Below are positions 4,926 through 22,184 of a stretch of 64,000 nt of DNA, piece after piece; position 1 is the first letter of the stretch, and the number at the start of each line of letters is the position of its first letter. The stretch is from Escherichia phage Mt1B1_P17. The notes beneath the pieces were generated by a model. The model worked only from the letters and a program-made list of their open reading frames with translations, was not told where the DNA came from and searched no databases. Both the position numbers and the translations under genes were made by a program. The stretch lies in sequence record NC_052662.1; one strand, 5' to 3'.

Positions 4926-4936
4926 AGGAGAGACTT

Positions 4937-5287
4937 ATGAGTAATTTTGATGAAATTCAAGAACTTGTTTGGGATTTATCTGGTGATGTGGATTACATTT
5001 CAGATTATCTTTCAAAAGTTTACCCTGGGGTAAGCGTTATGATTGTGACCAAAGATCCAATTAATTTGCCTCCTAATGTTGTAGCTTGTTGTGGAAGTGG
5101 TTCAGGAGAAGTAGAGCCTGTATCTCGTTGGGAATTAACTAAAGCTGTTTCAAAACGAAGCGGTGAAGTTTTGAATATTGATATTGAGCAAATATGGACT
5201 TCTCCAGCAGCCAAATGGAATGATCCAAATGGTTGGGATTTGTTCTTCTGGGATAATGAGACTGATGATGAGGTGTTTTTAAAATGA
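4937..5287 (+). CDS. Hypothetical protein
   Basis: ORF, 116 aa. Confidence 0.45.
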   Translation: MSNFDEIQELVWDLSGDVDYISDYLSKVYPGVSVMIVTKDPINLPPNVVACCGSGSGEVEPVSRWELTKAVSKRSGEVLNIDIEQIWTSPAAKWNDPNGWDLFFWDNETDDEVFLK

Positions 5288-5529
5288 AATACTTGTTGGT
5301 TGTGTTTGAAAATATCTGTTTTGCAATAGGGTTGTTTGTTGTAATTTTTGTATTGACAAGCGTAATCAACGGCAGTAAAGTGAGTTTATACCGAGATGGA
5401 GAGCAACTTTATTGCTTCTCTGGAGATTTCAAACACAGATGTATTAATAGCCAAAACGAGGAAAGCAAATATGAAAAAACTAGCCCTGATTTTAATTGGT
5501 TGTATCTTTTTAACAGCTTGCGAGGATGA
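5284..5529 (+). CDS. Hypothetical small membrane protein
   Basis: ORF with hydrophobic N-terminus; overlaps the lipoprotein gene start, so one of the two starts may be wrong. Confidence 0.25.
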   Translation: MKYLLVVFENICFAIGLFVVIFVLTSVINGSKVSLYRDGEQLYCFSGDFKHRCINSQNEESKYEKTSPDFNWLYLFNSLRG

Positions 5530-5908
5530 AACAAATCCTGCACAATACCAACAACCTCCTCAACAATACGCTCAACAAGGATCTGACGGAGATACAACTA
5601 TTATCAACAATGGTGGCGGTTCTAGTAGTAGCGGTGTTGGTGAGTTTGCTACAGGTATGTTGTTAGGGCATATGATGAGTGGCGGTAGTAATCGTAGCAG
5701 TGGGGATTATAACGATAACAGAACGATTATTAATAAGCATTATAATACACCTAAACCGAAAACTAATTTTTATGGTAAGCCTAAACAAGAGATAAAAACT
5801 TATGAAAAGCCGAGACAAACTTTTAAAACAAATAGTAGCTATACAACTCGTAAATCTTACAATAGCCCTTTAAGTAAAAAGAGTTCATCTCGTAGCAAGC
5901 GACGTTAA
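5471..5908 (+). CDS. Lipoprotein, low-complexity
   Basis: MKKLALILIGCIFLTAC signal peptide with lipobox; RBS GAGGAAAG; Gly/Ser-rich then basic tail. Confidence 0.45.
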   Translation: MKKLALILIGCIFLTACEDETNPAQYQQPPQQYAQQGSDGDTTIINNGGGSSSSGVGEFATGMLLGHMMSGGSNRSSGDYNDNRTIINKHYNTPKPKTNFYGKPKQEIKTYEKPRQTFKTNSSYTTRKSYNSPLSKKSSSRSKRR

Positions 5909-5922
5909 TAAGGAGAAAAACA

Positions 5923-6516
5923 ATGACAATTTCTATTCGTACTTCCATTACAGGTGTTAAAAGTTTGCCTAATGCTTTGCAAATCACACGTGCTTTGAGG
6001 GATACGTTCTCTGCTGTGGATGAGCATAAGATGCTCGATAATCTCTCAAATTGGCCCTATTTCCATTATTTTAAAAATGAAGACGACGAGTTTATAGACG
6101 CTGTTTCTTACGGTTATGATTTCGGTAAGGAGGTTTCCCCTGAAGAATTTGTAGCTACGGTGTTCCCAAACGGTTTGCCTACTCGCAGTAAACGTAAAAA
6201 AGGACCAAAAAACAAGAAACGTGCTACTAATAAAGCTACCATTTTCTTTACTGATGGCACACAATATACGATTAAAGATTTTGAAGAGGTATCTTATACA
6301 GCAGGTGGGAGTCTTTCTTTCTACACCATCAAAAAACAAAACTATACGTTCAGCCATGTTTCTAACATGATTGAAATGTTAGTAGAAGATATTGAAAGCG
6401 TGGCTGTGTTAGGTATGCATAAAAGCTTTTTAATTACAAATATTTCAGATTTCAGTGCAAGTTTATCTGGCCCTGATTTTGAAGCCACGACCACGCATTT
6501 CGCTTTTAAGGTGTAA
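5923..6516 (+). CDS. Hypothetical protein
   Basis: ORF, 197 aa; basic KRKKGPKNKKR patch. Confidence 0.45.
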   Translation: MTISIRTSITGVKSLPNALQITRALRDTFSAVDEHKMLDNLSNWPYFHYFKNEDDEFIDAVSYGYDFGKEVSPEEFVATVFPNGLPTRSKRKKGPKNKKRATNKATIFFTDGTQYTIKDFEEVSYTAGGSLSFYTIKKQNYTFSHVSNMIEMLVEDIESVAVLGMHKSFLITNISDFSASLSGPDFEATTTHFAFKV

Positions 6517-6519
6517 GTT

Positions 6520-7110
6520 ATGCATACCGAGAGAGACTTGCAACTCTTGTGGTGGGAAGTGATGCAGGAAATAAAAGAAGATTTTCCTGTTTACTACAAC
6601 ATGTTACGTGAAGCAGGATATAAAGCTTGTGTTAGAAACAAAGTGAATAACTCTTTCGGTTGGTGCAACTACCGAGATAAAATTGTTGTTGTAAATTGGC
6701 ACTTGCATAAGAACTCCACAAGAGATATGATCGTGGATACAATGAAGCACGAAATTGCTCATGCTATTGATGGTTGTATGGGTAAGTTTAGTAGACACGG
6801 TGCTCATTGGCAAAAACTGGCAGCAGAGTTAGGGGCTAATCCTAAAGCCACTTCCAAAGAGCCGTTGAACCACGAATATAAATATGTTCTTGTTCTGGTA
6901 GATAGGTTTGCGACAAGATGTGTTAGAGGTTATAATCGTAAACCTAATCGCATGTACCCAGGTAAGCAACCTAATATGTGGTTGAAATCAGATAAAGAAG
7001 GGACCGAAGGAAAATTATGGTTGTATAAATGGGACGATTGGGTTAAAGTAGCTAAAGAGTACGGTGTTTCACCATATATAAGAGATGCAGAAGAGGAGAA
7101 TGAAGAATGA
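6520..7110 (+). CDS. SprT-like zinc metallopeptidase
   Basis: HEIAHAI (HExxH) followed by GAHWQKLAAELGA, typical SprT-like arrangement. Confidence 0.55.
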   Translation: MHTERDLQLLWWEVMQEIKEDFPVYYNMLREAGYKACVRNKVNNSFGWCNYRDKIVVVNWHLHKNSTRDMIVDTMKHEIAHAIDGCMGKFSRHGAHWQKLAAELGANPKATSKEPLNHEYKYVLVLVDRFATRCVRGYNRKPNRMYPGKQPNMWLKSDKEGTEGKLWLYKWDDWVKVAKEYGVSPYIRDAEEENEE

Positions 7111-8219
7111 CAAGTCCATTTTTAAAAGCAGCTACTGGCGGTCAGAAGAAGCCTGAAATGAGCGTATTTGCTGCAACAACAGATGCAAGTAAATCTGTAT
7201 TCGCTCCAAGCGTGTTAGATGCCAGTCCTGTTTATGCACCAGCGGCACCGCAAGAAGTTCCAGTTTTGCCTTCTATGACCCGACAAGAGATCGAAGAGAT
7301 TGGGGCAGAGGCAGGAACAACCTTGCGTTCCTTGAATGCCGAGGTGTTAAAACATCAACGTAGTAATCAAGGCGATCAGATGAGTGAACGACTCACAGCT
7401 TTGATTAAACAGGCAAAACAACTTGATCCAAACTCTATTAAACAAAGCAAAGGTATTACTAAACTCATTAAAAAAGTTATGGGTATGAAAGAAGACCTGT
7501 TCGGGGAGTTTGATAATGTTAATAACCGTATTGAAGAGTTGGTAAAGAACCTTCAAATGGATATTCGCAAAGAAGAAGATTCCTTGGTATATCTTGAAAA
7601 GCTACATCAAGCTATTGGACAATATGCTGCAAGTTTGAACCGAGATATGCAGCTTCTAACAGCAACCTATGAAAAAGAAGAACAAGCTTTGGCTGCTCTT
7701 CCAGAAGATGCAGTAGAACAGCGACAAGTGATCCGAGATACTTTGGATCTCTTGGAGATTCGTATTGCAGATTTAAAAGCATTGCGCCTACTGTGTGTCC
7801 AAATGGGACCGCGTGTACAAGGTATGCAAAAAGTTTCTGCAAGCTTAATGCGATCTGCGCGTAACATAGTAAATAATGTTATTCCTGCTTACTCTGCTAA
7901 CTTCTCAATGTATATCGAGAGCTTACGTCAAATGAAAGCAGCAGAGACGCAGAATAACGTTCTTGATGAATTTAACCTGGCAATTAAACTGGGTAGCGAT
8001 CTTGCCACACAGAATCAGATCGAAGCAGCAGCACTGGCTAACCGTCAAGTGTTGGATATTGAAACTCTGCGTCACGATCAGGAAAACTTGGTTAAGATGT
8101 TGGAAGAAACTAACCGCATCAATACGGAAGCCCGTGCTGCTCGTGTTGATTATATTAATGAAGTTCAATCTCTGGAAGACGGGATGGTAGCTGCTGTGAA
8201 ACGAGGGCTTGGTAAATGA
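7107..8219 (+). CDS. TelA-like (toxic anion resistance family) protein, tentative
   Basis: About 370 aa, largely helical/coiled-coil, size and composition fit TelA; no unique motif confirmed. Confidence 0.35.
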   Translation: MTSPFLKAATGGQKKPEMSVFAATTDASKSVFAPSVLDASPVYAPAAPQEVPVLPSMTRQEIEEIGAEAGTTLRSLNAEVLKHQRSNQGDQMSERLTALIKQAKQLDPNSIKQSKGITKLIKKVMGMKEDLFGEFDNVNNRIEELVKNLQMDIRKEEDSLVYLEKLHQAIGQYAASLNRDMQLLTATYEKEEQALAALPEDAVEQRQVIRDTLDLLEIRIADLKALRLLCVQMGPRVQGMQKVSASLMRSARNIVNNVIPAYSANFSMYIESLRQMKAAETQNNVLDEFNLAIKLGSDLATQNQIEAAALANRQVLDIETLRHDQENLVKMLEETNRINTEARAARVDYINEVQSLEDGMVAAVKRGLGK

Positions 8220-8416
8220 GAATCCGTATCTATATAATTGATGAGGACATTGGTGTCCGTTATGATGACGAAAAACGATTCGCGCCGATGGGAGGTATAT
8301 ATCCCCCAAGTGTTCTAGCAGTTTGTCGTGATTGTTATATTTATGAAGGTTGTCGTAACTTCCGTAAATTCGAACTCCTTGCAGATATTGACTTCAATGA
8401 GGAGGAGGAGGAGTAA
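8216..8416 (+). CDS. Hypothetical protein with acidic C-terminus
   Basis: 66 aa ORF ending EEEEE. Confidence 0.35.
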   Translation: MRIRIYIIDEDIGVRYDDEKRFAPMGGIYPPSVLAVCRDCYIYEGCRNFRKFELLADIDFNEEEEE

Positions 8417-8589
8417 TGAAAATACTACGAGTGAATATTGAAACTGCTTGGTGTGGATGCAATGAGGTTGTGGATATCGAAATTGAAGATGATATGTCTC
8501 AAGAGGATATAGAAGATCTTGCACACGAAACCTTTCAGGATTATTGTAATTACGGGTTCCATATTTTAGAGGAGGAAGAAGATGTATAA
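8416..8589 (+). CDS. Hypothetical small protein, 57 aa
   Basis: ATG overlaps previous stop (TAATG); below the ORF-track size cutoff; found by manual translation. Confidence 0.3.
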   Translation: MKILRVNIETAWCGCNEVVDIEIEDDMSQEDIEDLAHETFQDYCNYGFHILEEEEDV

Positions 8590-8980
8590 TCCAACAGGTA
8601 TTCTTTTAAAACTTACAGTAACAGACCCTACTCTTTTCACTAAGTTAGCAAGTGGTGAAGTTTATGAAGTAATGAAAGATGGTGACGGTTGGTGTTATCT
8701 TTGTGGCTACTTCCTCTGTGATGCAGAAGAGTTAGAGTCCATTGTAACTAAAGGTTTTTATGAAGAACCAGGGTTCCGTGTGGAAACTACGCAGAAACCT
8801 GATACCATTACGCTGACTCGACAGGAACTGATCACAATCATTGAAGATGCTTTTATTGATGGCTGGAATACACAAGATAATGACTGGGGTGGACCCGAAG
8901 CTTTTCTGGAACATCATAAAGCTTATGGAGAATTTTGTGAAACCACTGTAGCTCTTGATAATCTGAAGGAGGGTTTGTAA
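8582..8980 (+). CDS. Hypothetical protein
   Basis: ORF, 132 aa; RBS GAGGAGGAAG. Confidence 0.45.
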   Translation: MYNPTGILLKLTVTDPTLFTKLASGEVYEVMKDGDGWCYLCGYFLCDAEELESIVTKGFYEEPGFRVETTQKPDTITLTRQELITIIEDAFIDGWNTQDNDWGGPEAFLEHHKAYGEFCETTVALDNLKEGL

Positions 8981-9543
8981 TGGGTTGTTTTAGCTTTTTG
9001 TGCAAAGAATCGGGCAAAGCTGCCCTTTCTACTTCTTTCGACGGATCACCTTGCTACCTCTTTCTTTTGAAGGACGGTGTTGTTATTGAAGAGATGTATG
9101 GCAACTATGATAGTTATGGTTGTGTTTTCTCTGGAAAGGAGGATGAAAATGGTGTTCGTGAACGATTTGAATGGGCTATGGATTGGAGTAAGGTTTGTGA
9201 TTTGATGCATTCCTCAAATCCAAGGGACGGTATCGCTATGGTGCTGGAAGAGTACTTTACAGGTGAAATCCCTACAGAACAATCTGACGGAGATCCTAAC
9301 CAAGGTTGGGGTGATGGTGAAGAAGATCCAGATTGTTTTTTCAGCACAGAAAAGAATAAGTTTAAACGTGTTGACAACCCTTATCACAAAGTGCATAATA
9401 CTCTCATTGAAACAAAAGATGACAAGATGGAAATTGAAGAAGATGATCCTCTTGTAACACTTCCTATAAGTGAGTTACAAAAGATCACTAAGGAAGCTTA
9501 CGATTTGGGCTTCAAAATTGGTAGAGGAGGTATGCGTGTTTAG
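8980..9543 (+). CDS. Hypothetical protein
   Basis: ORF, 187 aa. Confidence 0.45.
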   Translation: MGCFSFLCKESGKAALSTSFDGSPCYLFLLKDGVVIEEMYGNYDSYGCVFSGKEDENGVRERFEWAMDWSKVCDLMHSSNPRDGIAMVLEEYFTGEIPTEQSDGDPNQGWGDGEEDPDCFFSTEKNKFKRVDNPYHKVHNTLIETKDDKMEIEEDDPLVTLPISELQKITKEAYDLGFKIGRGGMRV

Positions 9544-9814
9544 ATTCAATATTCAAGAAGAAAAAAGTCAGGATTTACCTATTGCTTTCGAAGATCTTGA
9601 CGTAGGGGCCACATTCATGTATTATGATGCCTATGAAGACGCAGGGTTGGATACCTACCGTAACTTGGTGTTCATTAAAAATTCCACAAACAGTGCGATT
9701 TGTATTAATGGATCACTAGCACAACGAGGCTATACTCATTGCATCCCACCAGATACAAATATGGTGGAAGTAGATTTAGAAGTTACCAATATTACACTTA
9801 AGAAGGAGAAATAA
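9536..9814 (+). CDS. Small protein, paralog A of duplicated cassette
   Basis: GTG start 7 nt after GAGGAGG; homologous to 10836..11105 (shared DLDVG.TF and C-terminal ITLK). Confidence 0.45.
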   Translation: MFRFNIQEEKSQDLPIAFEDLDVGATFMYYDAYEDAGLDTYRNLVFIKNSTNSAICINGSLAQRGYTHCIPPDTNMVEVDLEVTNITLKKEK

Positions 9815-9815
9815 T

Positions 9816-10610
9816 ATGTCCGAGAAAATCAGCCTGAAAAAACGTCAAGAAAACCTTGCTTTCTCTCTGAAAAAGAATAAGAACCTGAATGAAGGTAAGA
9901 TTGTTCTTCGTGTAGCATGTGCTCTAGATATTTCTGGTAGTATGCATGGTCTATATTCTAGTGGGGTAGTGAGTGATTTTGTAGGTAAACTGCTTCCTTT
10001 TGGTATGCTGTTCGACGATAATCAACAAATTGATATGTGGGCCTTCAATACGAGTTCCCAAGAGCTTACTCCAGCAACAGCAGACGTTTACGATGACTAT
10101 GTTGGTAAATGTATGCGTAATGTTCGTATCGGAGGTGGAACAAATTACGCCCCTGTAATGGCAGATATCTACGATGAGTATTTTGGCACTGTTACCAAAT
10201 ATATTACCACTAAACAAGTGGTACAAGAGGAGGCTCCAAAGAAAGGCTTCTTTAATCGTCTGCTTGGTAAAACTGAAACAGTGTCTGTAGAGCGTGAAAA
10301 AGTTGTAGCTGTATCTGAACCAGGTGCTGACGTTACCCCTGGTGTTGTATTCTTCCAGACGGATGGTGAGAATGGTGATCCTAGTGCTGTTCGTCGTCTT
10401 ATTGAAGAGAATAAGAATAAACCTATTTATTGGTTCATGGTTGGCGTTGGTAATGAGAAGTTTGGGTTCCTGAAAGAACTGGCAAATGCTTATGATAATG
10501 TTGGTTTTATTGGCATTAAAGATTTAGACTTGACAGATTCAGAGCTTTATGACAAACTCTTATCTGAAGAGTTCGGAGAGTGGGTTGTTAAAGTAGGTGC
10601 TAAAAAATGA
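9816..10610 (+). CDS. von Willebrand factor A domain protein (TerY-like)
   Basis: MIDAS DISGS, downstream GGGTNYAPV and FFQTDGENGD motifs; N-terminus KISLKK like TerD proteins. Confidence 0.6.
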   Translation: MSEKISLKKRQENLAFSLKKNKNLNEGKIVLRVACALDISGSMHGLYSSGVVSDFVGKLLPFGMLFDDNQQIDMWAFNTSSQELTPATADVYDDYVGKCMRNVRIGGGTNYAPVMADIYDEYFGTVTKYITTKQVVQEEAPKKGFFNRLLGKTETVSVEREKVVAVSEPGADVTPGVVFFQTDGENGDPSAVRRLIEENKNKPIYWFMVGVGNEKFGFLKELANAYDNVGFIGIKDLDLTDSELYDKLLSEEFGEWVVKVGAKK

Positions 10611-10855
10611 TCGACGAGCTTGCCTCTCAAGTCATAGAAAATTATTGGCGCGAGAGAGAAGCTTTCATTATGCGCAGTCTCAAAGAGTATTTCATTGGGA
10701 CTGTGCGAATGGAAGATATTGTAAGTAGAGTGGAGATTCATGTATGGCCCGATTATGAAGAATGGGTTGACAAAGAAAATGAAAATGCTATAATTCTTCG
10801 TATATACAAACCGGAGATAACATTAGGAGGAAGAAGTGTTAAACTTCGAAATTGA
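10607..10855 (+). CDS. Hypothetical protein
   Basis: ORF, 82 aa. Confidence 0.4.
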   Translation: MIDELASQVIENYWREREAFIMRSLKEYFIGTVRMEDIVSRVEIHVWPDYEEWVDKENENAIILRIYKPEITLGGRSVKLRN

Positions 10856-11105
10856 TGAGCAAAAAGTAAATAAACGATGCCTTACCATTAAAGATTTGGA
10901 TGTAGGAGATACTTTCGTCTATGAAAATGCATTTGACGAAAATGGTTTAGACCTTAGTGAAATCATTGTTTATTTAAAAGTAGATGATGGGGAAAATGAT
11001 TATTCTGCTGTAGAACTAAACCATCATGCACAATTAGTATCAATCCAAAACACATCTAAGCTTTTGGAAGTAGAATTGACTGTAACTGGTATTACACTTA
11101 AATAA
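10836..11105 (+). CDS. Small protein, paralog B of duplicated cassette
   Basis: GTG start after AGGAGG; homologous to 9536..9814. Confidence 0.45.
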   Translation: MLNFEIDEQKVNKRCLTIKDLDVGDTFVYENAFDENGLDLSEIIVYLKVDDGENDYSAVELNHHAQLVSIQNTSKLLEVELTVTGITLK

Positions 11106-11120
11106 TAGAGGAGACAAAAG

Positions 11121-11723
11121 ATGACTGATAAAATTTCCCTGAAAAAAGGCTCTAGCGAAAAAATTTCCCTGAAGAAAGTTGCTCCGGCTCTGAAAGAACT
11201 GCGCCTGGAATTCTCTTGGAAATCTGATTCTAAACTGGATCTGGATGTAAGTGCACTGGTTTGTCGTCACAATGCCGCTGGTAATCCTGAAATGCTGTCT
11301 GCACGTCATCTGGTTTGCTATGCTAACAAGTTTGATCCTGAACGTTCTACCTTCGCTGGTGACGATGTTCGTGATGGAACTGGCAGCATGGAGCAGATTG
11401 ATATTACTCTGGCTAAAATCTCTCCTGATGCACAAGAGATTGCCTTTGTTCTGACCATTGATGATGATACAGGTCTGAAACGTTTTGGTCATGCTTCTGA
11501 AGGTATGCTTAAAATCTTCGACTCCGAGCGCAATGTGGAAATTCTGGATTTTGACTTCCTGGCTCCTGAAGTAGCTGGCAACACAATCTGCCACGTGGCT
11601 TCCTTGGTTCGTGAAGATGGGGAATGGAAGCTGAAAGCATATGGTGTAGGTAAAGCTGGTCTGGATATTTGTGATGTGGTGATGGCCTTCGGTGGTAAAA
11701 AAGAATGGTATGAATGTCCATAA
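11121..11723 (+). CDS. terD: TerD-domain protein
   Basis: N-terminal KISLKK repeated twice; acidic segments FAGDDVRDGTGS and LTIDDD fit TerD Ca-binding regions. Confidence 0.6.
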   Translation: MTDKISLKKGSSEKISLKKVAPALKELRLEFSWKSDSKLDLDVSALVCRHNAAGNPEMLSARHLVCYANKFDPERSTFAGDDVRDGTGSMEQIDITLAKISPDAQEIAFVLTIDDDTGLKRFGHASEGMLKIFDSERNVEILDFDFLAPEVAGNTICHVASLVREDGEWKLKAYGVGKAGLDICDVVMAFGGKKEWYECP

Positions 11724-12630: not shown

Positions 12631-12860
12631 TGGGAGAAGTCATTGAAGTCAATTTTCGCACTAAACAGAAAGTGCAAAAATATGTCGTTATTAAAAACAT
12701 TTGCGTTGTCTGCTTCAATACAGTAATATACGACTCACGACGCGGAGAAAACGAAAATGAACCTTACATTGAAATTTCTAAGAACAAAGGTCAATGTATT
12801 TGTAAGAACTGTGCAGTAGCTATTAAGGAGGTTGTAAATGAAAACGCTTGGGACCAATGA
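12630..12860 (+). CDS. Hypothetical Cys-rich small protein
   Basis: ATG overlaps previous stop; CVVC...CKNC pattern. Confidence 0.35.
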   Translation: MGEVIEVNFRTKQKVQKYVVIKNICVVCFNTVIYDSRRGENENEPYIEISKNKGQCICKNCAVAIKEVVNENAWDQ

Positions 12861-13029
12861 AACTGGCGAAATCTCTCTTCAAGAAGTGACAAACGACAAG
12901 CTGATTAAACTACGGGATGTAGCTCGTGACCATCTCCAAGAATCTTTTAAAGAATATATGGAAGCACGAGATCGTGTGATCCAGATTCAACAAGAAATGA
13001 TTAAACGTGGGATTGTAGCTGACAGTTAA
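12838..13029 (+). CDS. Hypothetical protein
   Basis: ORF with AAGGAGG RBS; 63 aa. Confidence 0.35.
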   Translation: MKTLGTNETGEISLQEVTNDKLIKLRDVARDHLQESFKEYMEARDRVIQIQQEMIKRGIVADS

Positions 13030-13045
13030 TATAACGGAGGGGAGA

Positions 13046-13609
13046 ATGATTTATTATATTACTCCCTATCTGACAGGAAATATCGGCAAGGCTATCAATA
13101 AAGCCATTGCCGTTCTTCCAGATGATAGTTGGGTGTGTTTAAGAGATACCGATACAATGTTCCTCCTACCTGATCAACCATCTATGCTTGAAGAGCTTGT
13201 TATGTCAAACCCGCCTTTTGATGTAATAGGTGCAACTTGTAACAGGTTAGGCAGTGGTTATCAGCTTTTCTCTAACCAAATTAACGATGATCCAGATATT
13301 CTAAACCATATAGAATATGCTAAGATTGCAAGAGAATATCATAAAGTGAGTGTTGAAGAAGTTCCTTTCGGAACACCTCTGGCAGGTTTCTTCTTGCTTT
13401 TTAGAAAATCATTGTGGAATGAAATTCCTTTCGAAGAAAAATCTATCCAATTCGACTTAATTTTCTCTCGCACTTTACATGAAAAAGGAAAGAGGTTAGG
13501 ATTGATGCGGGGAATGTATCTGTTTCACATTTACAGATTAGGTCAAATAAATCCTCAACGGTCTATACATCATTTATTACACTGTCATGATCACAGTAAA
13601 ACTATTTAG
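13046..13609 (+). CDS. Glycosyltransferase, GT-A-like
   Basis: DxD-type RDTDT and FFLLFRKSLW segment reminiscent of family 2 glycosyltransferases. Confidence 0.45.
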   Translation: MIYYITPYLTGNIGKAINKAIAVLPDDSWVCLRDTDTMFLLPDQPSMLEELVMSNPPFDVIGATCNRLGSGYQLFSNQINDDPDILNHIEYAKIAREYHKVSVEEVPFGTPLAGFFLLFRKSLWNEIPFEEKSIQFDLIFSRTLHEKGKRLGLMRGMYLFHIYRLGQINPQRSIHHLLHCHDHSKTI

Positions 13610-13617
13610 GAGAGAAA

Positions 13618-14301
13618 ATGGAAAATATTAAAATTGGAGTGGGTGTTATCACTGTAGGTGTCCGTCCACTTAAAGACTACCTTGTAACAGATCCACGTGC
13701 AGATTTTCGAGTATTCAACGATCCAGATCGTAAAGGTGTAGCTTATGCCAGGAATGAACTTATGCACCAGTTTTATGAAGAAGGTTATGATTATTGGTTT
13801 ATTTTTGACGACGATTGCTACCCAGTCATGGAGGGATGGGAAACATACTTTGTAGATCAAGCTGTCTCTGGAGGATGGGATTTCTTTGGTATGCCGGAGT
13901 ATTTCAAAGATAAAGTTGTTGGAAGCAAAGGAGAAGTTATTCTCTGGGAACTTGCAATGTGTCAATTTGCAATGTATTCTCGTGCCGTTGTTGAGAAGAT
14001 GGGTTATTTCCGTCCTTACACTCACGGCTATGGTTTTGAAGATGCTGAATGGGGACACCGTTTGCAAGCTGCTGGTTTGAATCATGGTATTCAGGCAACA
14101 CCTTGTCCACTTCGTATCATGGCTTATATCCACCCAGACGATGTTTTTGGAAACAACCCTATGCCTTTTGCTAATCTGACAAAAGAAGAGAAAGAAGCTG
14201 CTATCGGGATTAACTGGGAAGAATATAAAGCATCTTTAGAGGATATTAAAAATGGGAAAATCCGAATTTCCTATGAGGAGGCACTGGCACATGTCAAATA
14301 A
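13618..14301 (+). CDS. Glycosyltransferase, GT-A-like
   Basis: FIFDDDCYP (DxD) and GYGFEDAEW segments. Confidence 0.45.
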   Translation: MENIKIGVGVITVGVRPLKDYLVTDPRADFRVFNDPDRKGVAYARNELMHQFYEEGYDYWFIFDDDCYPVMEGWETYFVDQAVSGGWDFFGMPEYFKDKVVGSKGEVILWELAMCQFAMYSRAVVEKMGYFRPYTHGYGFEDAEWGHRLQAAGLNHGIQATPCPLRIMAYIHPDDVFGNNPMPFANLTKEEKEAAIGINWEEYKASLEDIKNGKIRISYEEALAHVK

Positions 14302-15238
14302 AAAATGGTCTAAACTAAAAATTGATGCAAAACCTCATAGCGGTTGTGACTATCATCGTATTGTTATGCCATTTAACAACAATAATTTTCAACCTAAGAA
14401 AGATATTGTTGTGTTTAACCGTATCCACTCTAAAGGTGCAGAATACGTTTTATCTTTGAAACGTCAAGGTGTTAAGGTTGTTGTAGATTTAGATGATTTT
14501 TACCAACTTAATCCAGAGCATTATTTAGCAAGTCTATACGAGTCAAACACTCATGCTATTGTAGCTATGGTTAAGCTTGCTGATGTGGTTATTGTGACTA
14601 CAGAATATTTGGCATATAAGATCCGTCACTTAAATAGAAATGTCGTTGTGATCCGAAATGCACTTCCTTTTGATAGCGGACAATTCACTTTGTCAAATGA
14701 TCGTTCATCCGGTACCCCTGTTGTATGGGCTGGCGGTGCTAGTCACGAACCAGATTTACGACTAGTCTCTAATACTTTCGATGATGAACTTCTTACTATT
14801 GCGGGATATGAAGCATCACAAAGCATCACGGGACAAGAGTGGATTAAGATTCGCAGAAATTTACCAAATGCCAAATATAAAGCTGCTGTAAAAGATTTAG
14901 ATAATTACATGAGTGTTTACGAAAGTCATGCTATTGCTATAGCTCCTTTGGTAGACAATGATTTTAATAATTGTAAAAGTAATCTCAAAATCCTGGAAGC
15001 TGGAGCAAAAGGTATTCCGATTGTTTGTTCTAAGGTATTACCTTATTTTAACCCTGTAGATGCTCGCGCTGTTGCTTACGCAGAGAATAAAGCAGAATGG
15101 CATTACGAAATTGTTAAGCTTCTTCGCAATCCAAACTATCGGGAAGATCGTGGCTTGTTCTTGGCTGAACATGTTCGAACACATTATAATCTGGCAGATG
15201 CAAACGAGTTGCGACGCCAGGTTATTGAAAGTTTGTAG
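14291..15238 (+). CDS. Glycosyltransferase, GT-B-like, paralog 1
   Basis: SNLKILEAGAKGIPIVCS C-terminal motif; paralogous to 15246..16190. Confidence 0.45.
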   Translation: MSNKKWSKLKIDAKPHSGCDYHRIVMPFNNNNFQPKKDIVVFNRIHSKGAEYVLSLKRQGVKVVVDLDDFYQLNPEHYLASLYESNTHAIVAMVKLADVVIVTTEYLAYKIRHLNRNVVVIRNALPFDSGQFTLSNDRSSGTPVVWAGGASHEPDLRLVSNTFDDELLTIAGYEASQSITGQEWIKIRRNLPNAKYKAAVKDLDNYMSVYESHAIAIAPLVDNDFNNCKSNLKILEAGAKGIPIVCSKVLPYFNPVDARAVAYAENKAEWHYEIVKLLRNPNYREDRGLFLAEHVRTHYNLADANELRRQVIESL

Positions 15239-15245
15239 GTGAAGT

Positions 15246-16190
15246 ATGGGACAAATAATTCTTGACAATCGTAACGGAATCAATTATAGTGTCTGCGATT
15301 TCCATAGGGTAGTGCTGCCTTACTCAAGGCAGTTCTCTTCACAACCTAAATACAACGTTTTCGTTTTTAACGGAGTGCCAACAAAAGGTAAAGAGGGCTT
15401 TTTAGCCCTTAAAAACCTAGGCTTTAAAATGGTTATGGATTTGGATGACTCTTTAGTTATTCCAAAAGGACACATGTTAGAAGGTATTTTTGAATCAGGT
15501 ATTCGTGAACATTTAAAATGGTTTTTAGAGCACAGTGATCTTGTTACAACTACGACACCTGCCTTGCAAGTTGAACTTTCACAATACAATGATAATGTGC
15601 ACATAATCCCTAATGGACTTCCTTATGATGAAGGTCAATTTGTGTTGACCCGTGATCGCTACTCCAAAACTCCATTAGTCTGGGCTGGAAGTGAAACACA
15701 TAAACAAGATTTGGCTATCTTGCCCGATTTTGGTAAAGATCTTACAATATGTGGTTTTCGTAGGGATTCTGAAGTTTTAAGTAGTCGTGAATGGTCTGTA
15801 ATCAGAGAAAATGTAGCACCAACTTGTGTTTATGAAGGTGTAAGACCATATGCCAACTACATGGAATCTTACGATGGTCATCAAATCAGTCTTGCGCCAT
15901 TGATTGATAACGTGTTTAATAATGCAAAAAGCAATCTTAAAATTCTTGAGGCAGGTGCTAAGGGTTTACCTTTGATCTGTTCTCCTCGTGAGAATTATCA
16001 TACACAAGAGTTTAAAGATTTGTTATTCTTTGCTGAAACACCTTCCGAGTGGAAAGATATTACGGAATACTTATTAAGTGCTCCCGATGTTTGCATGGAG
16101 AAAGGATTAGCATTAGCTAAGTATGTCAGGACTCATTATCACATTGATGTGTTGAATGAGCGTCGTAGACTTTTATTTGAGGAGCTATAA
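15246..16190 (+). CDS. Glycosyltransferase, GT-B-like, paralog 2
   Basis: SNLKILEAGAKGLPLICS; shared CD(Y/F)HR, DLDD and VWAG segments with the upstream paralog. Confidence 0.45.
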   Translation: MGQIILDNRNGINYSVCDFHRVVLPYSRQFSSQPKYNVFVFNGVPTKGKEGFLALKNLGFKMVMDLDDSLVIPKGHMLEGIFESGIREHLKWFLEHSDLVTTTTPALQVELSQYNDNVHIIPNGLPYDEGQFVLTRDRYSKTPLVWAGSETHKQDLAILPDFGKDLTICGFRRDSEVLSSREWSVIRENVAPTCVYEGVRPYANYMESYDGHQISLAPLIDNVFNNAKSNLKILEAGAKGLPLICSPRENYHTQEFKDLLFFAETPSEWKDITEYLLSAPDVCMEKGLALAKYVRTHYHIDVLNERRRLLFEEL

Positions 16191-16468
16191 TGATTAACAC
16201 TTTTGATTTTGAATACACCACTCGTAACGGGAAAGCCTTAGTTGTGGAGGTGGATTACTATTATGAAGAGCCTAACCCGCTTTCTCGTGAAAGTGATTGG
16301 GATTACCACGGAGGGCTTTTAATTGACGGTATTCGTTTTTATGAAGGCTCTACAGAAGTTTTTGAAAAAGATTTAAATGTAACTGTAGCAGAAATTGCTT
16401 TCCAATTTAGAAAGCATATGGAAGAACTAGAAGCAGAATATATGATGGAGACTAACGAACCATTTTAA
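16190..16468 (+). CDS. Hypothetical protein
   Basis: ORF, 92 aa; start overlaps previous stop. Confidence 0.4.
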   Translation: MINTFDFEYTTRNGKALVVEVDYYYEEPNPLSRESDWDYHGGLLIDGIRFYEGSTEVFEKDLNVTVAEIAFQFRKHMEELEAEYMMETNEPF

Positions 16469-16480
16469 CAGGAGAACAAA

Positions 16481-18259
16481 GTGTCGCACATTATAACTAA
16501 ATATGGATTTGATGTTGATCTTAGCAAGGAAGGGCATACAGGTTGTCCGCGCTGCATGAAAAATGGCAAGGATCGCTCTCGTAATAACCTGATGGTTTAT
16601 GGATTAGATTCTAATGGAGAGCATAAAGGTGCTAAGTGCTTTGCGTGTGAATACACTATTCCTAGCGTAGAATGGTTACGAGAAAATGGTGAAGTTTTAG
16701 AAGAAGAGGAGGAGATTGTGGGTTCGGAATTTAATAAACAGATTCATCGTAAAATTGTTCAAGAAACATCAACCAACCCACGTGGTTATCGAGGCATTAA
16801 AGAAAAAGTTTCATCTTTCTATGGTGTTCGTTATGAATACCGTCAGGAAGGGGATCAGATGGTAGTAGAAAGTTGTTTATATCCGACTACTATCGGTAAA
16901 GAATTGGTTGGTTTTAAGCGTCGTATTCATCCTAAAGATTTCAGTAAACCTATTGGTCAAGTAGGTAAAGATGTAGATCTTTTTGGACAAATTCGTTTTG
17001 CAGACCGTTCTCATACTGTGGTAATTACAGGTGGTGAACACGATGCTCTGGCAGCTTATCAAATGCTATCTGAAAACTTGGACAACAAGTATGAACTTCC
17101 AGCAGTAGTTAGTGGCACAACTGGTGAAACCAGTATGTATAAACAAGTTCAGGCACAATATCCTTTCTTTGAAAAATTTAAGAAGATTATTGTTTGCATG
17201 GATAATGATAAAGCAGGTAATGAGGCATTTGAAAATATTGTTAAGGTGCTGCCTCGTAACAAAGTCTACCGTATGCAGATGGATCTTAAGGATGCCAATC
17301 AGTATCTGGAAGAAGGTCGTGCAAAAGATTTCGTAAAAGCTTTTTGGAGTGCTCGTCTATACACCCCAGCAGGTGTTTATGCTTCTAATGTCTTGTATGA
17401 AGCTGCATTAGAATGCTTGGAATCCAAGATGATTACCTTGCCTCCTTTTATGCGTGTAGCTGCAAACATGCTGGGTGGTGGTTTAGTAGAGGAAGAGATT
17501 ACAGTCATCCTGGCAAAGACCAGTATCGGTAAAACTTTGATGGTGAACGAGATCACCAAACATATTATTGTTGCGCACCCAGAACATACCCTAGGTATCC
17601 TGTCCTTGGAAGCAACTTATAAGAAATATTCTCGTAACCTGTTGTCCTCGTTCCTGCATATTCCTCTACACAGGAAAACACCGGAAGAGAAATTTCAAAT
17701 CTTGGAAGAGAATAAAGAAAAAATCCTAGATTTTTACGAAAGAGAAGATGGATCACCACGTTTTTATGTATGTGATGATCGTGGAGCAGATGTGGAGTCT
17801 ATCAAAGAAAAAGTTTTGGAGATGATCATCTATTTTGGAGTAACAATTCTTGTTATCGACCCTTATTCTGATTTGCTTTCTGGTATGGATGTTCAAGCCC
17901 AAGAAGAGTTAGCAACATGGTTGAAGCGCATTATGAAAGAGTATGCTATAACTATTATCGTCATCTCACACGTTAAGAAATCGGCTAATGGTGGCAATGA
18001 ACACTTAACAGAGGACGATGCAATGGGTAGTAGTTTCTTGGCTAAAGGTGCTGGTATTACCTTGGCTTTGGAACGAGATAAAGCCGCTGAAGACCCTGTA
18101 GAACGCAATACGACTCATTGCTTTATCCTAAAAAACCGTGAGTTCTCGGAAACTGGTCCGGCAGGGCAGTTTTACTATGACATTAGAACTGCAACTCTGC
18201 ATGACAAAGAGCAGTATTTCAACAATCCTGCTAATTTGCCTACGGATAGCAACTATTAA
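16481..18259 (+). CDS. DNA primase-helicase
   Basis: GTG start; N-terminal zinc finger CPRC...CFAC; Walker A ILAKTSIGKT and Walker B-like LVIDPYSD in C-terminal half. Confidence 0.7.
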   Translation: MSHIITKYGFDVDLSKEGHTGCPRCMKNGKDRSRNNLMVYGLDSNGEHKGAKCFACEYTIPSVEWLRENGEVLEEEEEIVGSEFNKQIHRKIVQETSTNPRGYRGIKEKVSSFYGVRYEYRQEGDQMVVESCLYPTTIGKELVGFKRRIHPKDFSKPIGQVGKDVDLFGQIRFADRSHTVVITGGEHDALAAYQMLSENLDNKYELPAVVSGTTGETSMYKQVQAQYPFFEKFKKIIVCMDNDKAGNEAFENIVKVLPRNKVYRMQMDLKDANQYLEEGRAKDFVKAFWSARLYTPAGVYASNVLYEAALECLESKMITLPPFMRVAANMLGGGLVEEEITVILAKTSIGKTLMVNEITKHIIVAHPEHTLGILSLEATYKKYSRNLLSSFLHIPLHRKTPEEKFQILEENKEKILDFYEREDGSPRFYVCDDRGADVESIKEKVLEMIIYFGVTILVIDPYSDLLSGMDVQAQEELATWLKRIMKEYAITIIVISHVKKSANGGNEHLTEDDAMGSSFLAKGAGITLALERDKAAEDPVERNTTHCFILKNREFSETGPAGQFYYDIRTATLHDKEQYFNNPANLPTDSNY

Positions 18260-18792: not shown

Positions 18793-19587
18793 TTGAGCAA
18801 GTTGAACACACTTGATCAATATTACACTAACCCCGCTTATGCGGGGTTCTTATGTGATAAGATCAAAGAAATTTTTGGAGAGGAAGCTAACTACGTAGAA
18901 CCATCTGCGGGAGAAGGAGCTTTCTCTTCTTGTTTTAAAAACATAACTTCTTTTGATATTGACCCTAAGTTTGAAGATTGTATTGAGGCAGATTTTTTAG
19001 CTCAATCTGTTGAGTCTGTTGGTAGTGTAACTGCTTTTGTCGGTAATCCTCCATTTGGAAAAAATGCTAGTCTTGCCATTAAATTCTTTAACCATTGTGC
19101 TGAAATGCTGGATAACGAAGGTGGTATTTGTTTTATCTTGCCTCGCACATTTCAAAAAATCTTTTTTGCACACAAGCTAAATCCCCATATGCATCTTCTT
19201 TACGAAGAAGAATGTCCAAAAGGATCTTTTATTCTTCATGGAGAACCTTGGGATGTTCCTTGTGTATTCCAGGTATGGATTAAACGCAACGAGAAGCGTT
19301 CTCCCGTTGTTTTAGGAGAGAATCGACTATTCGTATTAGGTAACAGTAAAGACTACGATATAGCCGTTAGGAGAGCGGGAGCAAGTGCAGGTAAAGTGTT
19401 ATCAGAAGAAGATTCTTTATCTGAAGCATCTACCTATTTTTTAAAAGCCTTGACTTCTGATCTTAAAACGCGTATCATTGAGGCTTACCCGTTACTTAAA
19501 GCTGAAGCTAGTAAAACTGCGGGAGTAAGAAGTTTAAGTTTAAAAGAACTTCAGTGGGTTCTGGAGAACATTAGAAAGGAGGAATAG
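18793..19587 (+). CDS. DNA N6-adenine methyltransferase-like protein
   Basis: TTG start after AAGGAGG; SAM-binding-like EPSAGEGAF and catalytic NPPF motif. Confidence 0.5.
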   Translation: MSKLNTLDQYYTNPAYAGFLCDKIKEIFGEEANYVEPSAGEGAFSSCFKNITSFDIDPKFEDCIEADFLAQSVESVGSVTAFVGNPPFGKNASLAIKFFNHCAEMLDNEGGICFILPRTFQKIFFAHKLNPHMHLLYEEECPKGSFILHGEPWDVPCVFQVWIKRNEKRSPVVLGENRLFVLGNSKDYDIAVRRAGASAGKVLSEEDSLSEASTYFLKALTSDLKTRIIEAYPLLKAEASKTAGVRSLSLKELQWVLENIRKEE

Positions 19588-22184
19588 TGAGTAAGTTTAC
19601 ATGGGATATTGAAGCAAACGGATTGTTGAATAATGACACTATTGATTATTTAGCTAGTCCTTATCGTCTCAAAGACACATTTCAAATGCACTGTATTGTC
19701 TTAGAGAACCATGAAACAGGAGAAATAGTAGCTTTCCACGATGGCCCTAAATACATCTTTGATGGGCGTCCTTATGAAGAGTCAGATGGTAAATACACAT
19801 ATGTTCTTAAAGAGTATGTGGCGCAAGATTACACACATTTTCAACTAAAAGATTTCCCAGATTTTATTAATCATGAAGGTTATTTTAAAGACAAGCCTGA
19901 ATATCTGGTTGAAATGGCTGTGGCTCACAACGGTATCAACTACGACTGGTTGGCTACAAAACTGTTTTATGGATTAGATTACAGTGTTAAATATAATACG
20001 TGGGGCAAAAATAAGGTAAAACTTATTGACTCCTTGATTTTGAGTAAAGTGTTAAACCCAGATCGAAAGATTGAGGGCAAATCAGGACATAGCTTGGCAG
20101 CACTTTCTCGAAAAGCAGGTGGTGATGTAAAAATAGATTTCCGTAAAGAGATTCCAGAAGAAGATCGATTTAAGACTTTTGCTGCGGATATGCTTTATTA
20201 CTGTATCTATGACAACAAAGCCAATACGAGCGTATATAATTACCTTATGGAAGAATGGGGTGATTATGATAAATGGGAAGGTCCATTTGAACTTGAACAA
20301 CGTGTAGCAGACATTATTACACGCCAGGAACACCGTGGGTTTGCTTTTAACATGAAACAAGCAGAAGAGAACCTTGCTTTTTTGGATGCAGAAATGGAGC
20401 GTCTTCGTTTACTCGTTGAGCCTATTTTGCCACCTAAACCAGCAACAAAAGGTTATCTTAAGGCTTTTATTCCACCTAAGTTGCAAATTAAAAAGAACTT
20501 AGAGCCAACTAACCATATGATCAATTTTGCTAAGAAACATGATGGTCATTTGGAAGAGAGGGATGGCGATTGGTGGTTAGTTATGTTGGGGAAAGAGTGG
20601 AAACTGCCAGTTGCAGCAGATGAGCCTCTATGTGATCCTAACATTCCTGCAACATTGAACGATACAACCCATATTAAAAACTGGCTTGTAGGATTAGGTT
20701 GGGTACCGTCTGAATATAAAGATAAAGACTTGACTCTTAAATCTGGCACCAAGATTAAAAAGAGCGAGGAAGAACTTCAGAAAGGTATTCGAGCTTACGT
20801 TGAGCAAACCCTATCTTCTAATTTTTGTCAGGATCGTTGTGATCATCTGGAGTGCACACCGGAAACCCTGGAAAGGAAGATTCAAGAGCGTATAGCAAAA
20901 GGTAAAGGTCGCGGTCTTAAAGTATTGACTAACCCGTGTTTTACCAAAGGTCAGGAAAAAGAAATTTGTCCTAACCTGCAAGCTTTGGGTGAGAAGTTTC
21001 CTTATGCTACACAGATTGTAGAATACTTAACGTATAAGCATCGTAGGAACTCTATTTTAGGTGGCGGTGCTGATTGGGAAGAAGATGAAGAAGATCAAGA
21101 ATACGATAAAGGTTTCTTAGCCGCAGTAAGGGCGGATGGGCGTATTCCTACCCCAGCCGCTACATGTGATGCTGCAACCTCTCGTATGAAGCATAGATCT
21201 GTAGCTAATATTCCTCGTGTCACATCTTTGTTTGGATGGGAGATGCGTAACTTGTTTGGTGTAGAGGTTCCTAAATACTTCCAGATCGGCTACGATTTCG
21301 ACTCTTTGGAAGCAAAAATTGAATCACACTACTGTTGGCGGTACGAGCCGGAGCCACACGAATATTGTAACGCTCTGTTGTTAGAGAAACCTAATGATGT
21401 TCACACAATGATGGCAAAACGTATCACTGAAACTATTGGACGTAAATTTGAACGTAGTCCTGCTAAATCTGTTAAGTATGGTATTACCTATGGTGCACAA
21501 GCCGACAAGGTTGCTAAAACAATTGGTAGCGATAAGTTTACAGGTCAATTGGTGTTTGATGCTTTCTGGGAAGCTGCATTCCCATTGGCGCGTCTTAAAG
21601 AACGTTTAAACGATTTCTGGGTTAAGACTGGTAAACAATATGTTTTGGGTATTGACGGTCGTAAGGTTCCTACTCGTTCTGCTCACGCGATTCTTAACTC
21701 TCTATTCCAAAGCGGCGGGGTTATCTGTGCTAAACGTGCAATGGTTATTTATGACGACATGATCGAAGAAGAAGGGCTAAGTGTTGACTTCTTTAAAGAT
21801 GACTGGAAGAATAAAGACTTCGTGCAACAAATGATCGCATATCACGATGAAGCCCAGCTTGAAGTTTCTCGTAACCTTGTAGAATTTAAATGGTTTTCAC
21901 CTGAATCATTAGGTTGGAAGAAAGTAGACGATCCTGAAGAACAAAAGAAAATTGATAAAGAATGCCTTGCTAAAGTTGAAGAATGGAAGCATAATAAGGA
22001 AAAAGAGACGGGACAAATTTGGGCTAACATTCATGAATCTCCCAAAGGTGGATGGTTTACAGCCTATAGTCGGGCAGGTGAACTCGCTGCTTTAGCTGTT
22101 ACTAAGGCTGGAGAATTTTACAATCTTAATGTTCAGCTTACTGCCGGATATGATGTGGGTAACTCCTGGGCATCCTGTCATTGA
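19587..22184 (+). CDS. DNA polymerase, family A, with 3'-5' exonuclease domain
   Basis: GTG start; Exo I-like DIEANG near N-terminus; KYGITYGAQ (motif B-like) and YHDEAQLEV (motif C-like). Confidence 0.75.
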   Translation: MSKFTWDIEANGLLNNDTIDYLASPYRLKDTFQMHCIVLENHETGEIVAFHDGPKYIFDGRPYEESDGKYTYVLKEYVAQDYTHFQLKDFPDFINHEGYFKDKPEYLVEMAVAHNGINYDWLATKLFYGLDYSVKYNTWGKNKVKLIDSLILSKVLNPDRKIEGKSGHSLAALSRKAGGDVKIDFRKEIPEEDRFKTFAADMLYYCIYDNKANTSVYNYLMEEWGDYDKWEGPFELEQRVADIITRQEHRGFAFNMKQAEENLAFLDAEMERLRLLVEPILPPKPATKGYLKAFIPPKLQIKKNLEPTNHMINFAKKHDGHLEERDGDWWLVMLGKEWKLPVAADEPLCDPNIPATLNDTTHIKNWLVGLGWVPSEYKDKDLTLKSGTKIKKSEEELQKGIRAYVEQTLSSNFCQDRCDHLECTPETLERKIQERIAKGKGRGLKVLTNPCFTKGQEKEICPNLQALGEKFPYATQIVEYLTYKHRRNSILGGGADWEEDEEDQEYDKGFLAAVRADGRIPTPAATCDAATSRMKHRSVANIPRVTSLFGWEMRNLFGVEVPKYFQIGYDFDSLEAKIESHYCWRYEPEPHEYCNALLLEKPNDVHTMMAKRITETIGRKFERSPAKSVKYGITYGAQADKVAKTIGSDKFTGQLVFDAFWEAAFPLARLKERLNDFWVKTGKQYVLGIDGRKVPTRSAHAILNSLFQSGGVICAKRAMVIYDDMIEEEGLSVDFFKDDWKNKDFVQQMIAYHDEAQLEVSRNLVEFKWFSPESLGWKKVDDPEEQKKIDKECLAKVEEWKHNKEKETGQIWANIHESPKGGWFTAYSRAGELAALAVTKAGEFYNLNVQLTAGYDVGNSWASCH

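Follow-up and report, generated by a model that had tools for sequence, protein, structure and literature searches.

Four consecutive genes at positions 13046-16190 of the analyzed stretch of phage DNA (the window, 64,000 nt in full) are near certain to encode glycosyltransferases, here named GT1 to GT4. Our best guess, with a rough probability of 0.4, is that the four enzymes assemble an oligosaccharide and that its acceptor would be one or more structural proteins of the virion. A non-DNA acceptor is probable; virion proteins are the leading guess for it, held at less than even odds. This is a fourth role beyond the three listed in the initial annotation (DNA base glycosylation, host surface glycan modification, and decoration of a Ter-module metabolite), and it fits the gene contexts at least as well. 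All four genes are already annotated as glycosyltransferases in RefSeq, and their identity as such is not new. The window belongs to a phAPEC8-like E. coli phage of the genus Phapecoctavirus and is 99.9% identical to phage ESCO37/REC.

All four ORFs were present on the + strand and tightly packed, as first described. GT1 (13046..13609, 187 aa) and GT2 (13618..14301, 227 aa) are separated by 8 nt, GT2 and GT3 (14291..15238, 315 aa) overlap by 11 nt, and GT3 and GT4 (15246..16190, 314 aa) are separated by 7 nt. The GT3 ORF begins at 14252 in the mechanical list, and translation almost certainly begins at the ATG at position 14291, because this codon sits 9 nt past a GAGGAGG Shine-Dalgarno sequence and agrees with the RefSeq annotation of phage tuntematon. 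GT4 is translationally coupled to a small acidic ORF of 92 aa (16190..16468, + strand) through a 1-nt ATGA overlap, and 12 nt separate this ORF from the primase-helicase gene (16481-18259). The genes for an N6-adenine methyltransferase (18793-19587) and a PolA-type polymerase (19587-22184) lie downstream, and the ORF coordinates thus bear out the reported head-to-tail order. No terminator was predicted on the + strand between 11.7 and 16.6 kb, and the packed glycosyltransferase genes share one transcription unit with the primase-helicase gene. The 92-aa ORF matches phrog_4240 (function unknown; E 6e-33), and ORFs of 85-92 aa occupy the same slot between the GT-B gene and the primase-helicase gene in KP13-26, JohannJBalmer, L013, L014, and L015. 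No counterpart was evident in the temperate-phage versions of the gene cassette described below, and the membership of this ORF in the cassette is uncertain.

The proposed division into two GT-A-like and two paralogous GT-B-like proteins was supported by profile and fold evidence, and the profile searches did not point to non-glycosyltransferase families, the outcome named beforehand as speaking against the assignment. GT1 is a minimal GT-A enzyme with a single Rossmann-like alpha/beta/alpha fold and the conserved DxD motif for metal and nucleotide-sugar binding. Its RDTDT motif (R33-D-T-D-T37) is real, with D34 and D36 invariant in 22 homologs. GT1 had no match in Pfam or NCBIfam and so reached no curated glycosyltransferase family cut-off; none of the other three enzymes or their small neighbors matched NCBIfam either. 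A link of GT1 to glycosyltransferase family 2 (PF00535/PF13641) would be transitive only, via two remote members of the GT1 family whose GT1-like regions scored 44 bits on PF00535 (P0089; cut-off 23.3) and 42.9 bits on PF13641 (P0205; cut-off 27). The fold matches of GT1 include STIV A197, mimivirus R655/R699, and SpsA.

GT2 matched two PHROG families annotated as glycosyltransferases, phrog_2456 (E 1e-78) and phrog_1579 (E 6e-13), and three Pfam GT-A families at sub-threshold scores: TAGT (19.5 bits, cut-off 27.5), Glyco_transf_7C, and Glycos_transf_2. The FIFDDD motif noted earlier lies at residues 61-66; its D64, D65, and D66 do not vary among 17 homologs, and neither do E141 and D142 of a conserved YGxED motif. 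These residues and matches support the assignment of GT2 as a putative GT-A-like enzyme of the DxD type. The profile-profile comparison of GT1 with GT2 was not significant, and the two are therefore not called paralogs. When GT1, GT2, and GT4 were compared directly with the sequences of PDB chains, nothing meaningful was returned, and profile searches of the same chains gave noise for GT1 and GT2 and weak matches to enzymes of family GT4 for the GT-B alignment.

GT3 and GT4 belong to the GT4/CgeB-like group of GT-B enzymes, with two Rossmann domains and an inter-domain cleft in each. They are paralogs, as the initial annotation held (41% identity, tblastn E about 1e-66), and both carry the SNLKILEAGAKG(I/L)P motif, in which K228 and K232 are invariant and E235 nearly invariant among 29 homologs. 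By eye, E235, within LEAGAKG, corresponds to the second Glu of the EX7E motif of retaining family GT4 enzymes; the position of the first Glu, eight residues earlier, is Ala and adjoins the invariant K228. GT3 matched phrog_7162 (E 6.5e-149) and reached 20.7-22.6 bits, below cut-off, on the Pfam families Glyco_trans_1_4 and Glyco_trans_1_2, and GT4 barely passed on PF13524 (25.2 bits, cut-off 25), a family that includes members named 'Spore protein YkvP/CgeB'. Several homologs of GT3 and GT4 have precomputed matches to PF13524 or PF00534. GT3 has a basic N-terminal (acceptor) domain (pI 9.5, charge +6), and GT4 is acidic and divergent.

GT3 is 51-61% identical to the single-copy GT-B proteins of Klebsiella phage KP13-26, a Serratia prophage, and myovirus contigs, and clusters with them in a neighbor-joining tree; it is the ortholog of the lone GT-B in all other versions of the cassette. 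GT4 was found only in records of Stephanstirmvirinae (Phapecoctavirus and Justusliebigvirus), almost all labeled as E. coli or Salmonella phages, and is a duplicate confined to that lineage.

By the homologs retrieved, the core set of GT1-, GT2-, and GT3-type genes is a mobile module of two to four glycosyltransferases, depending on the phage. In unrelated smaller phages, it lies in late or head-gene regions with no replication or Ter genes alongside. In the Serratia prophage, GT1, GT2, and a GT-B gene are sited between lysis genes and HNH/terminase; in L008 and L019, GT-B and GT2 lie between terminase and portal; in the lambdoid L009 and L010, GT2 and GT-B lie between the Q antiterminator and holin-lysozyme genes. 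A larger island in L012, whose terminase is closest to those of Synechococcus phages, combines several glycosyltransferases and an FkbM methyltransferase between capsid and portal genes and ends with a GT1 homolog. A 152-aa protein encoded between the L008 glycosyltransferase genes was considered as a C39-type peptidase, a guess for which Pfam gave no support. Adjacency to head genes is weak evidence of function because the temperate-phage sites are classic insertion hot spots for accessory genes. The nearest relatives of some cassette phages infect Aeromonas, alpha-proteobacteria, or cyanobacteria, and the hosts thus apparently extend past the Enterobacterales, which favors a target carried by the phage itself.

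The number and variable composition of the glycosyltransferases (two to four) argue for the assembly of an oligosaccharide and against one inactivating transfer. This bears on the proposal that the enzymes act on a small molecule or a non-virion protein, such as a predicted nucleoside-like product of the Ter/PRTase module, a defense signal, or a host protein. A Ter module (HAD, PRTase_3, TerC, TelA, vWA-TerF, and TerD) does lie directly upstream at about 1.6-11.7 kb, the Ter-then-glycosyltransferase order is kept in relatives, and enzymes with small-molecule acceptors (sucrose-phosphate synthase, BshA, and TreT) are among the best fold matches. However, the Ter genes are set apart from the cassette by a gene for a cell-wall hydrolase and by several small ORFs. 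The suggested role in decorating a metabolite of the Ter module finds no support, because no Ter gene accompanies the cassette in at least five other phage contexts, and we regard small molecules and non-virion proteins as the least probable acceptors.

For the virion-directed oligosaccharide, the glycosyltransferases would add several sugars in succession to give a short rhamnose-containing chain. At least one of these sugars would be L-rhamnose, drawn from dTDP-L-rhamnose made by the phage enzymes RmlBACD. GT3, the conserved enzyme, whose acceptor domain is basic, would probably start the chain on the acceptor, and the other enzymes would extend it. The acceptor would be one or more of the capsid, decoration, and tail proteins, so that the particle would bear a glycan coat.

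The complete dTDP-L-rhamnose pathway is annotated outside the window, as rmlB-rmlA-rmlC-rmlD in tuntematon (gp240-237). Among phage records searched with tblastn, the RmlD query matched 155 and the GT4 query 139, with 105 Escherichia-named records in each, a co-occurrence inside one subfamily that is phylogenetically non-independent. ESCO37 has cleanly lost rmlB and rmlA only and keeps rmlC and rmlD. The two lost steps can be supplied by E. coli RffG and RffH of the enterobacterial common antigen (ECA) pathway. In contig L015, a gene for an NDP-sugar 4,6-dehydratase/epimerase is inserted between GT1 and GT2.

The ESCO37 loss also bears on modification of host envelope glycans, since RmlC and RmlD would then consume dTDP-4-keto-6-deoxyglucose, an ECA precursor. 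Soluble glycosyltransferases at the cytoplasmic face of the inner membrane would, on this account, modify undecaprenyl-PP-linked units or the LPS core (ECA, O-unit, or core), and the receptor would be altered or depleted so that superinfection is blocked or progeny are kept off debris. GT3, with its basic N-terminal domain, would be well suited to an anionic membrane surface, and an exclusion function fits expression with early or middle genes. ECA and the outer-core glucose of LPS serve as receptors for relatives of these phages (PMC8594841). The four enzymes appear to be soluble and cytoplasmic, with no hydrophobic segment at the transmembrane level (maximum 19-residue Kyte-Doolittle score 1.65), and they come without flippase, polymerase, or Gtr-type partners, which counts against an envelope target. 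In GtrABC O-antigen glucosylation, the enzymes are integral membrane proteins and the sugar is bactoprenol-linked. The Gtr systems of temperate enterobacterial phages are likewise phage-encoded, alter the surface glycan, and block superinfection, but they differ from the four enzymes here in their membrane location. Surface LPS remodeling is also slow relative to a short lytic cycle. Weak consensus scans of the L009 and L010 cassettes found no sigma-70-like promoter or terminator of their own, features that lysogenic-conversion genes usually have, and this too speaks against an envelope target; such scans of the window and of two temperate-phage cassettes were otherwise uninformative and revealed no obvious self-contained promoter-gene-terminator unit. 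To our knowledge, the Aeromonas, alpha-proteobacterial, and cyanobacterial hosts of the nearest relatives of homologous cassette phages have no ECA, and these relatives count further against this target. The host-surface role in the initial annotation keeps some plausibility as a possible function of the enzymes; it is the main rival of virion proteins as the target but ranks below them, and we consider it rather unlikely. If the host envelope is the target, the cassette would mask receptors by a new route that relies on soluble enzymes.

Glycosylation of DNA bases, such as the rhamnosylation of a hydroxylated pyrimidine as a means of evading restriction or other nucleases, was proposed by Olsen et al. 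2020 (PMC7552041). It is in keeping with the position of the glycosyltransferase genes inside the replication module and of the tuntematon rml genes in a nucleotide-metabolism module adjoining NrdAB and ThyX. A further point in its favor is the ThyX homolog, which at 332 aa is unusually long and, with a Pfam E of just 5e-8, unusually divergent. The weak matches of GT2 to TAGT (E 1e-3) and to phrog_842, the T2/T6 beta-glucosyl-HMC alpha-glucosyltransferase family (E 8e-6), point the same way, but they are below cut-off and limited to a generic nucleotide-binding/DxD stretch (residues 32-70). The same holds for the likeness to TET-associated glycosyltransferases (PF20691, TAGT): GT2 and its homologs match this family weakly around the DxD motif, for GT2 at residues 32-68 only, and, unlike in TAGT systems, no TET/JBP gene was found nearby or among the scanned proteins. 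Neither a ThyA-type hydroxymethylase/hydroxylase nor a TET/JBP or other base-hydroxylating enzyme was found in the whole-genome annotation of tuntematon, which lists only ThyX, or in a Pfam scan of 20 of its larger proteins, which recovered the Ter/PRTase module, an NT5C-like nucleotidase, and the divergent ThyX. A Dcm-like gene is annotated far from the cassette, and our own Pfam scan of it gave nothing.

The T-even DNA glucosyltransferases (T4 AGT and BGT) and the RB69/DLP3 arabinosyl-5-hydroxycytosine system are alike in using soluble phage GT-B or GT-A enzymes, sometimes in series, and systems of this type are accompanied by a phage-encoded nucleotide-sugar pathway (PMC13326640). They differ in having a ThyA homolog that makes hm-dCMP or 5ho-dCMP, in place of which the tuntematon annotation and 20 scanned proteins gave ThyX only, and in their restriction-resistant DNA. 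HincII cuts the DNA of five Phapecoctavirus isolates, whereas three other phages of the same study resist (PMC10269720). Bas60-62, phi92-like phages of the sister genus, are 'exceptionally susceptible' to restriction-modification systems (PMC8594841), and Bas61 and Bas62 succumb to Druantia III and ARMADA II, two systems that in the view of the authors of that finding recognize unmodified DNA. A modification that is sparse and site-specific would go unnoticed in the restriction tests made to date. Small lambdoid, HK97-like, and other phages also carry orthologous cassettes, with no base-hydroxylating gene in the retrieved flanks, and the lambdoid phages depend on host replication (O/P genes in L009). 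The GT4 fold clearly matches T4 AGT and BGT, but generic cellular enzymes of family GT4 are closer; among the best 50 BFVD matches (13 of them unnamed), no T-even DNA glucosyltransferase was named, and the neighbors were generic phage and giant-virus glycosyltransferases. The failure to find a hydroxylating enzyme in the annotation and the proteins scanned, the cleavable DNA, the restriction-sensitive sister phages, and the small cassette phages together disfavor DNA as the acceptor, which we consider improbable. The field is thereby narrowed, with bulk DNA modification unlikely and the cassette independent of the Ter module.

Glycosylation of virion proteins has virus-encoded precedents in the capsid glycans of chlorovirus PBCV-1, the fibril glycans of mimivirus, and STIV A197. 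Such viruses carry small, lineage-variable sets of soluble glycosyltransferases, in some cases together with sugar methyltransferases and their own rhamnose pathway. The L012 island between capsid and portal genes resembles them in its several glycosyltransferases and FkbM methyltransferase. The present enzymes share a fold with those glycosyltransferases but no relationship at the sequence level, and, unlike in these systems, the genes of the present phage lie among replication genes and not structural ones. In mycobacteriophages, Ser/Thr-rich tails can be glycosylated; no such C-terminal tail was seen by eye in the major capsid and decoration proteins, which counts against them as acceptors. 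Glycosylation of the mycobacteriophage capsid and tail tube, a further precedent, was reportedly described by Freeman et al. 2023.

No published report of a glycosylated virion protein in these phages, or of a functional test of these genes, was found. The cassette of this phage sits among early/middle replication genes rather than late genes, a position that counts against virion proteins as the acceptor. For phages that infect Gram-negative hosts, we know of no system described earlier that glycosylates virion proteins. As a tentative and rather doubtful generalization, Stephanstirmvirinae coliphages and scattered other phages may coat their virions with a lineage-variable, rhamnose-containing oligosaccharide built by the portable GT1/GT2/GT3 cassette. 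Such a coat would matter for how antibodies recognize the particle, for its binding to mucus, and for its stability. Phapecoctavirus and Justusliebigvirus are broad-host-range phages and common candidates for phage therapy, and they carry eight glycosylation genes (four glycosyltransferases and rmlBACD). If the virion surface is the target, this would affect the immunogenicity of phages used in therapy as well as their pharmacokinetics and mucosal retention, and virion glycosylation would extend beyond actinobacteriophages.

On the spore surface of Bacillus subtilis, SpsA, CgeB, and the SpsI-L rhamnose genes decorate a protein shell. The combination of a GT-A enzyme (SpsA), a CgeB-type GT-B enzyme (GT4 matches PF13524), and a dTDP-rhamnose pathway is similar, by analogy only; the spore system is a bacterial developmental one, and there is no sign of common descent with the cassette. 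The capsid structure of phi92 is PDB 21uy.

Over positions 12800-16500, identity reached 99.9% with Escherichia phages vB_EcoM_ESCO37 and REC and 98.5% with phAPEC8, values by which the window is assigned to Phapecoctavirus (Stephanstirmvirinae), a lytic myovirus of ~150 kb. The four glycosyltransferase (GT) genes proposed in the initial annotation were recovered as + strand ORFs at the positions claimed: GT1 (13046-13609), GT2 (13618-14301), GT3 (14291-15238), and GT4 (15246-16190). The start of GT3 is almost certainly 14291, preceded by a GAGGAGG ribosome-binding site, and not 14252. The quoted GT motifs were present in the window proteins and conserved among homologs, and GT3 and GT4 were paralogous as proposed (41% identity). 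The observation of four GTs was confirmed, but it is already annotated in public records. All four genes are labelled 'glycosyltransferase' in RefSeq tuntematon (NC_052660, gp113-116) and phAPEC8 (NC_020079), and the two larger genes are labelled 'putative disaccharide synthase' in BASEL phage JohannJBalmer.

All four proteins are glycosyltransferases. Each matched PHROG families annotated as such (E 1e-79 to 1e-149). Pfam backing was weak: GT4 alone reached the cut-off (PF13524, 25.2 bits against 25), GT2 had three GT-A matches, all sub-threshold, and GT1 had no match. The structures of GT4 and GT1 were therefore predicted from homolog alignments, and both models were confident (pLDDT 94.2 and 92.5, respectively). 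An exhaustive profile search for the GT1 family returned 989 clusters, many of them fusions with methyltransferase or additional GT domains. Two remote members were sampled (proteins P0089 and P0205), and in both the GT1-like region itself exceeded a Pfam cut-off for glycosyltransferase family 2 (PF00535 or PF13641). GT2 is very likely a GT-A enzyme, judging from its PHROG matches and from two invariant motifs, DDD and ED. No membrane segments were predicted in any of the four proteins; GT2 and GT4 are acidic, and the N-terminal domain of GT3 is basic.

The GT genes are adjacent or overlapping, and no + strand terminator was predicted between them and the primase-helicase gene; the simplest reading is that GTs and replication genes form a single transcription unit. 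In every myovirus version of the cassette, a very acidic 92-aa protein (in the window 16190-16468, + strand; phrog_4240, pI 4.2) is encoded between the final GT-B and the primase-helicase. Upstream is a Ter-type stress module (1642-11720, + strand) encoding a HAD hydrolase (1642-2295), a ComF-like PRTase_3 (2291-3115), a phosphatase (3133-3603), TerC (3920-4891), an SprT-like protein (6562-7107), TelA (7107-8216), vWA-TerF (9816-10607), and TerD (11121-11720), all on the + strand. The small + strand ORFs on either side of the vWA-TerF gene (9470-9814 and 10836-11105) are paralogs (local alignment score 122) with the motifs DLDVGxTF and EVxLxVTxITLK in common. The Ter-then-GT order was kept in phi92-like contigs (L017/L018), myovirus contig L013, and Klebsiella phage KP13-26.

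Cassette versions were recovered via homologs from metagenomes and genomes. KP13-26 carries GT1 and one GT-B at the same position as the window phage, and myovirus contigs L013 and L014 carry GT1, GT2, and one GT-B. In locus L015, an NDP-sugar 4,6-dehydratase/epimerase is inserted between GT1 and GT2, and in locus L011 a GT-B is accompanied by two more GTs and an aminotransferase of the DegT type. GT1, GT2, and GT-B lie between lysis genes and HNH/terminase in a Serratia sp. M24T3 prophage; GT2 and GT-B lie between the Q antiterminator region and holin-lysozyme in lambdoid contigs (L009/L010); GT-B and GT2 lie between terminase and portal in L008/L019; and in L012 an island of multiple GTs and an FkbM methyltransferase, with a GT1 homolog at its end, lies between capsid and portal genes. 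The L012 terminase was nearest to those of Synechococcus phages, and the L008 terminase to those of Aeromonas, Paracoccus, and Rhizobium phages; hosts of cassette-bearing phages appear to span several bacterial groups. The initial suggestion that the GTs decorate a Ter-module metabolite does not hold up, since the cassette moves between phages independently of Ter genes. In a distance tree, GT3 grouped with all single-copy GT-Bs, and GT4 formed a separate, more divergent branch common to Phapecoctavirus and Justusliebigvirus, a placement by which the ancestral unit was of GT1/GT2/GT3 type and GT4 is a later duplicate.

Two to four soluble GTs of variable membership, sometimes with sugar-modifying enzymes, are the signature of stepwise, lineage-specific assembly of a short glycan. 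As candidate acceptors, virion proteins and the host envelope remain. In smaller phages, the cassette was always in late or morphogenesis regions with no obvious promoter of its own; this position and the apparent host spread give modest support to a target that the phage carries along, which would be virion proteins. Elsewhere, virus-encoded GTs with a rhamnose pathway glycosylate capsids or fibrils. The major capsid protein (53835-54833, - strand) matched PDB 21uy chain N (Phi92_gp124; E 1e-201), so a phi92 capsid structure exists that can be inspected for glycan density. A host-envelope glycan as the target carries real weight, given that several of the best fold matches act on lipid-linked acceptors, GT3 has a basic acceptor domain, and ECA and LPS core are recognised by these phages.

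A full dTDP-L-rhamnose pathway (rmlB-rmlA-rmlC-rmlD) is encoded in the tuntematon genome ~70 kb away from the GTs, adjoining NrdAB and a divergent ThyX; it lies outside the window. The ThyX gene, also outside the window (tuntematon locus L004, 703-1698) and annotated as FAD-dependent thymidylate synthase, encodes a long product (332 aa) with a weak, partial match to the ThyX profile (E 5e-8, residues 22-174) and adjoins an NT5C-like deoxynucleotidase gene. In the window's closest relative, ESCO37, a clean deletion (OM386659.1, 33.6-34.6 kb; L016, 9661-10563) left rmlC and rmlD and removed only rmlB and rmlA. E. coli itself makes dTDP-4-keto-6-deoxyglucose via RffH and RffG for ECA synthesis, so the deletion removed redundant steps alone, which suggests that the rhamnose branch is still used.

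Two papers have drawn attention to the rml pathway; in one of them, Olsen et al. proposed that hydroxymethylated nucleotides are rhamnosylated (PMC7552041). Among the serious readings, DNA glycosylation by the GTs, the most exciting on offer, has the least support. No enzyme able to create a hydroxylated base was found in the annotation of the tuntematon genome or in a scan of 20 of its larger proteins, nor any base-hydroxylating gene in the retrieved flanks of lambdoid or other small phages; lambdoid phages, moreover, replicate via host machinery. In fold, cellular GT4 enzymes are nearer than the DNA glucosyltransferases, and published restriction data point the opposite way; in the second paper, Maffei et al. 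found phi92-like phages 'exceptionally susceptible' to restriction-modification systems 'despite a putative dTDP glycosylation machinery' (PMC8594841). These points weaken the reading; the GTs might still modify DNA sparsely, at specific sites.

Records labelled as Campylobacter phages B15, A110a, and C3, Acinetobacter phage vB_AbaM_ABPW7, and Klebsiella phage ZCKP1 showed 98-99% identity to E. coli Phapecoctavirus/Justusliebigvirus genes (RmlD or GT region); these look like doubtful host labels or phages carried over on E. coli. Pseudomonas phage PsgM04F has the same rmlC-rmlD pair at an identity of only about 66%.
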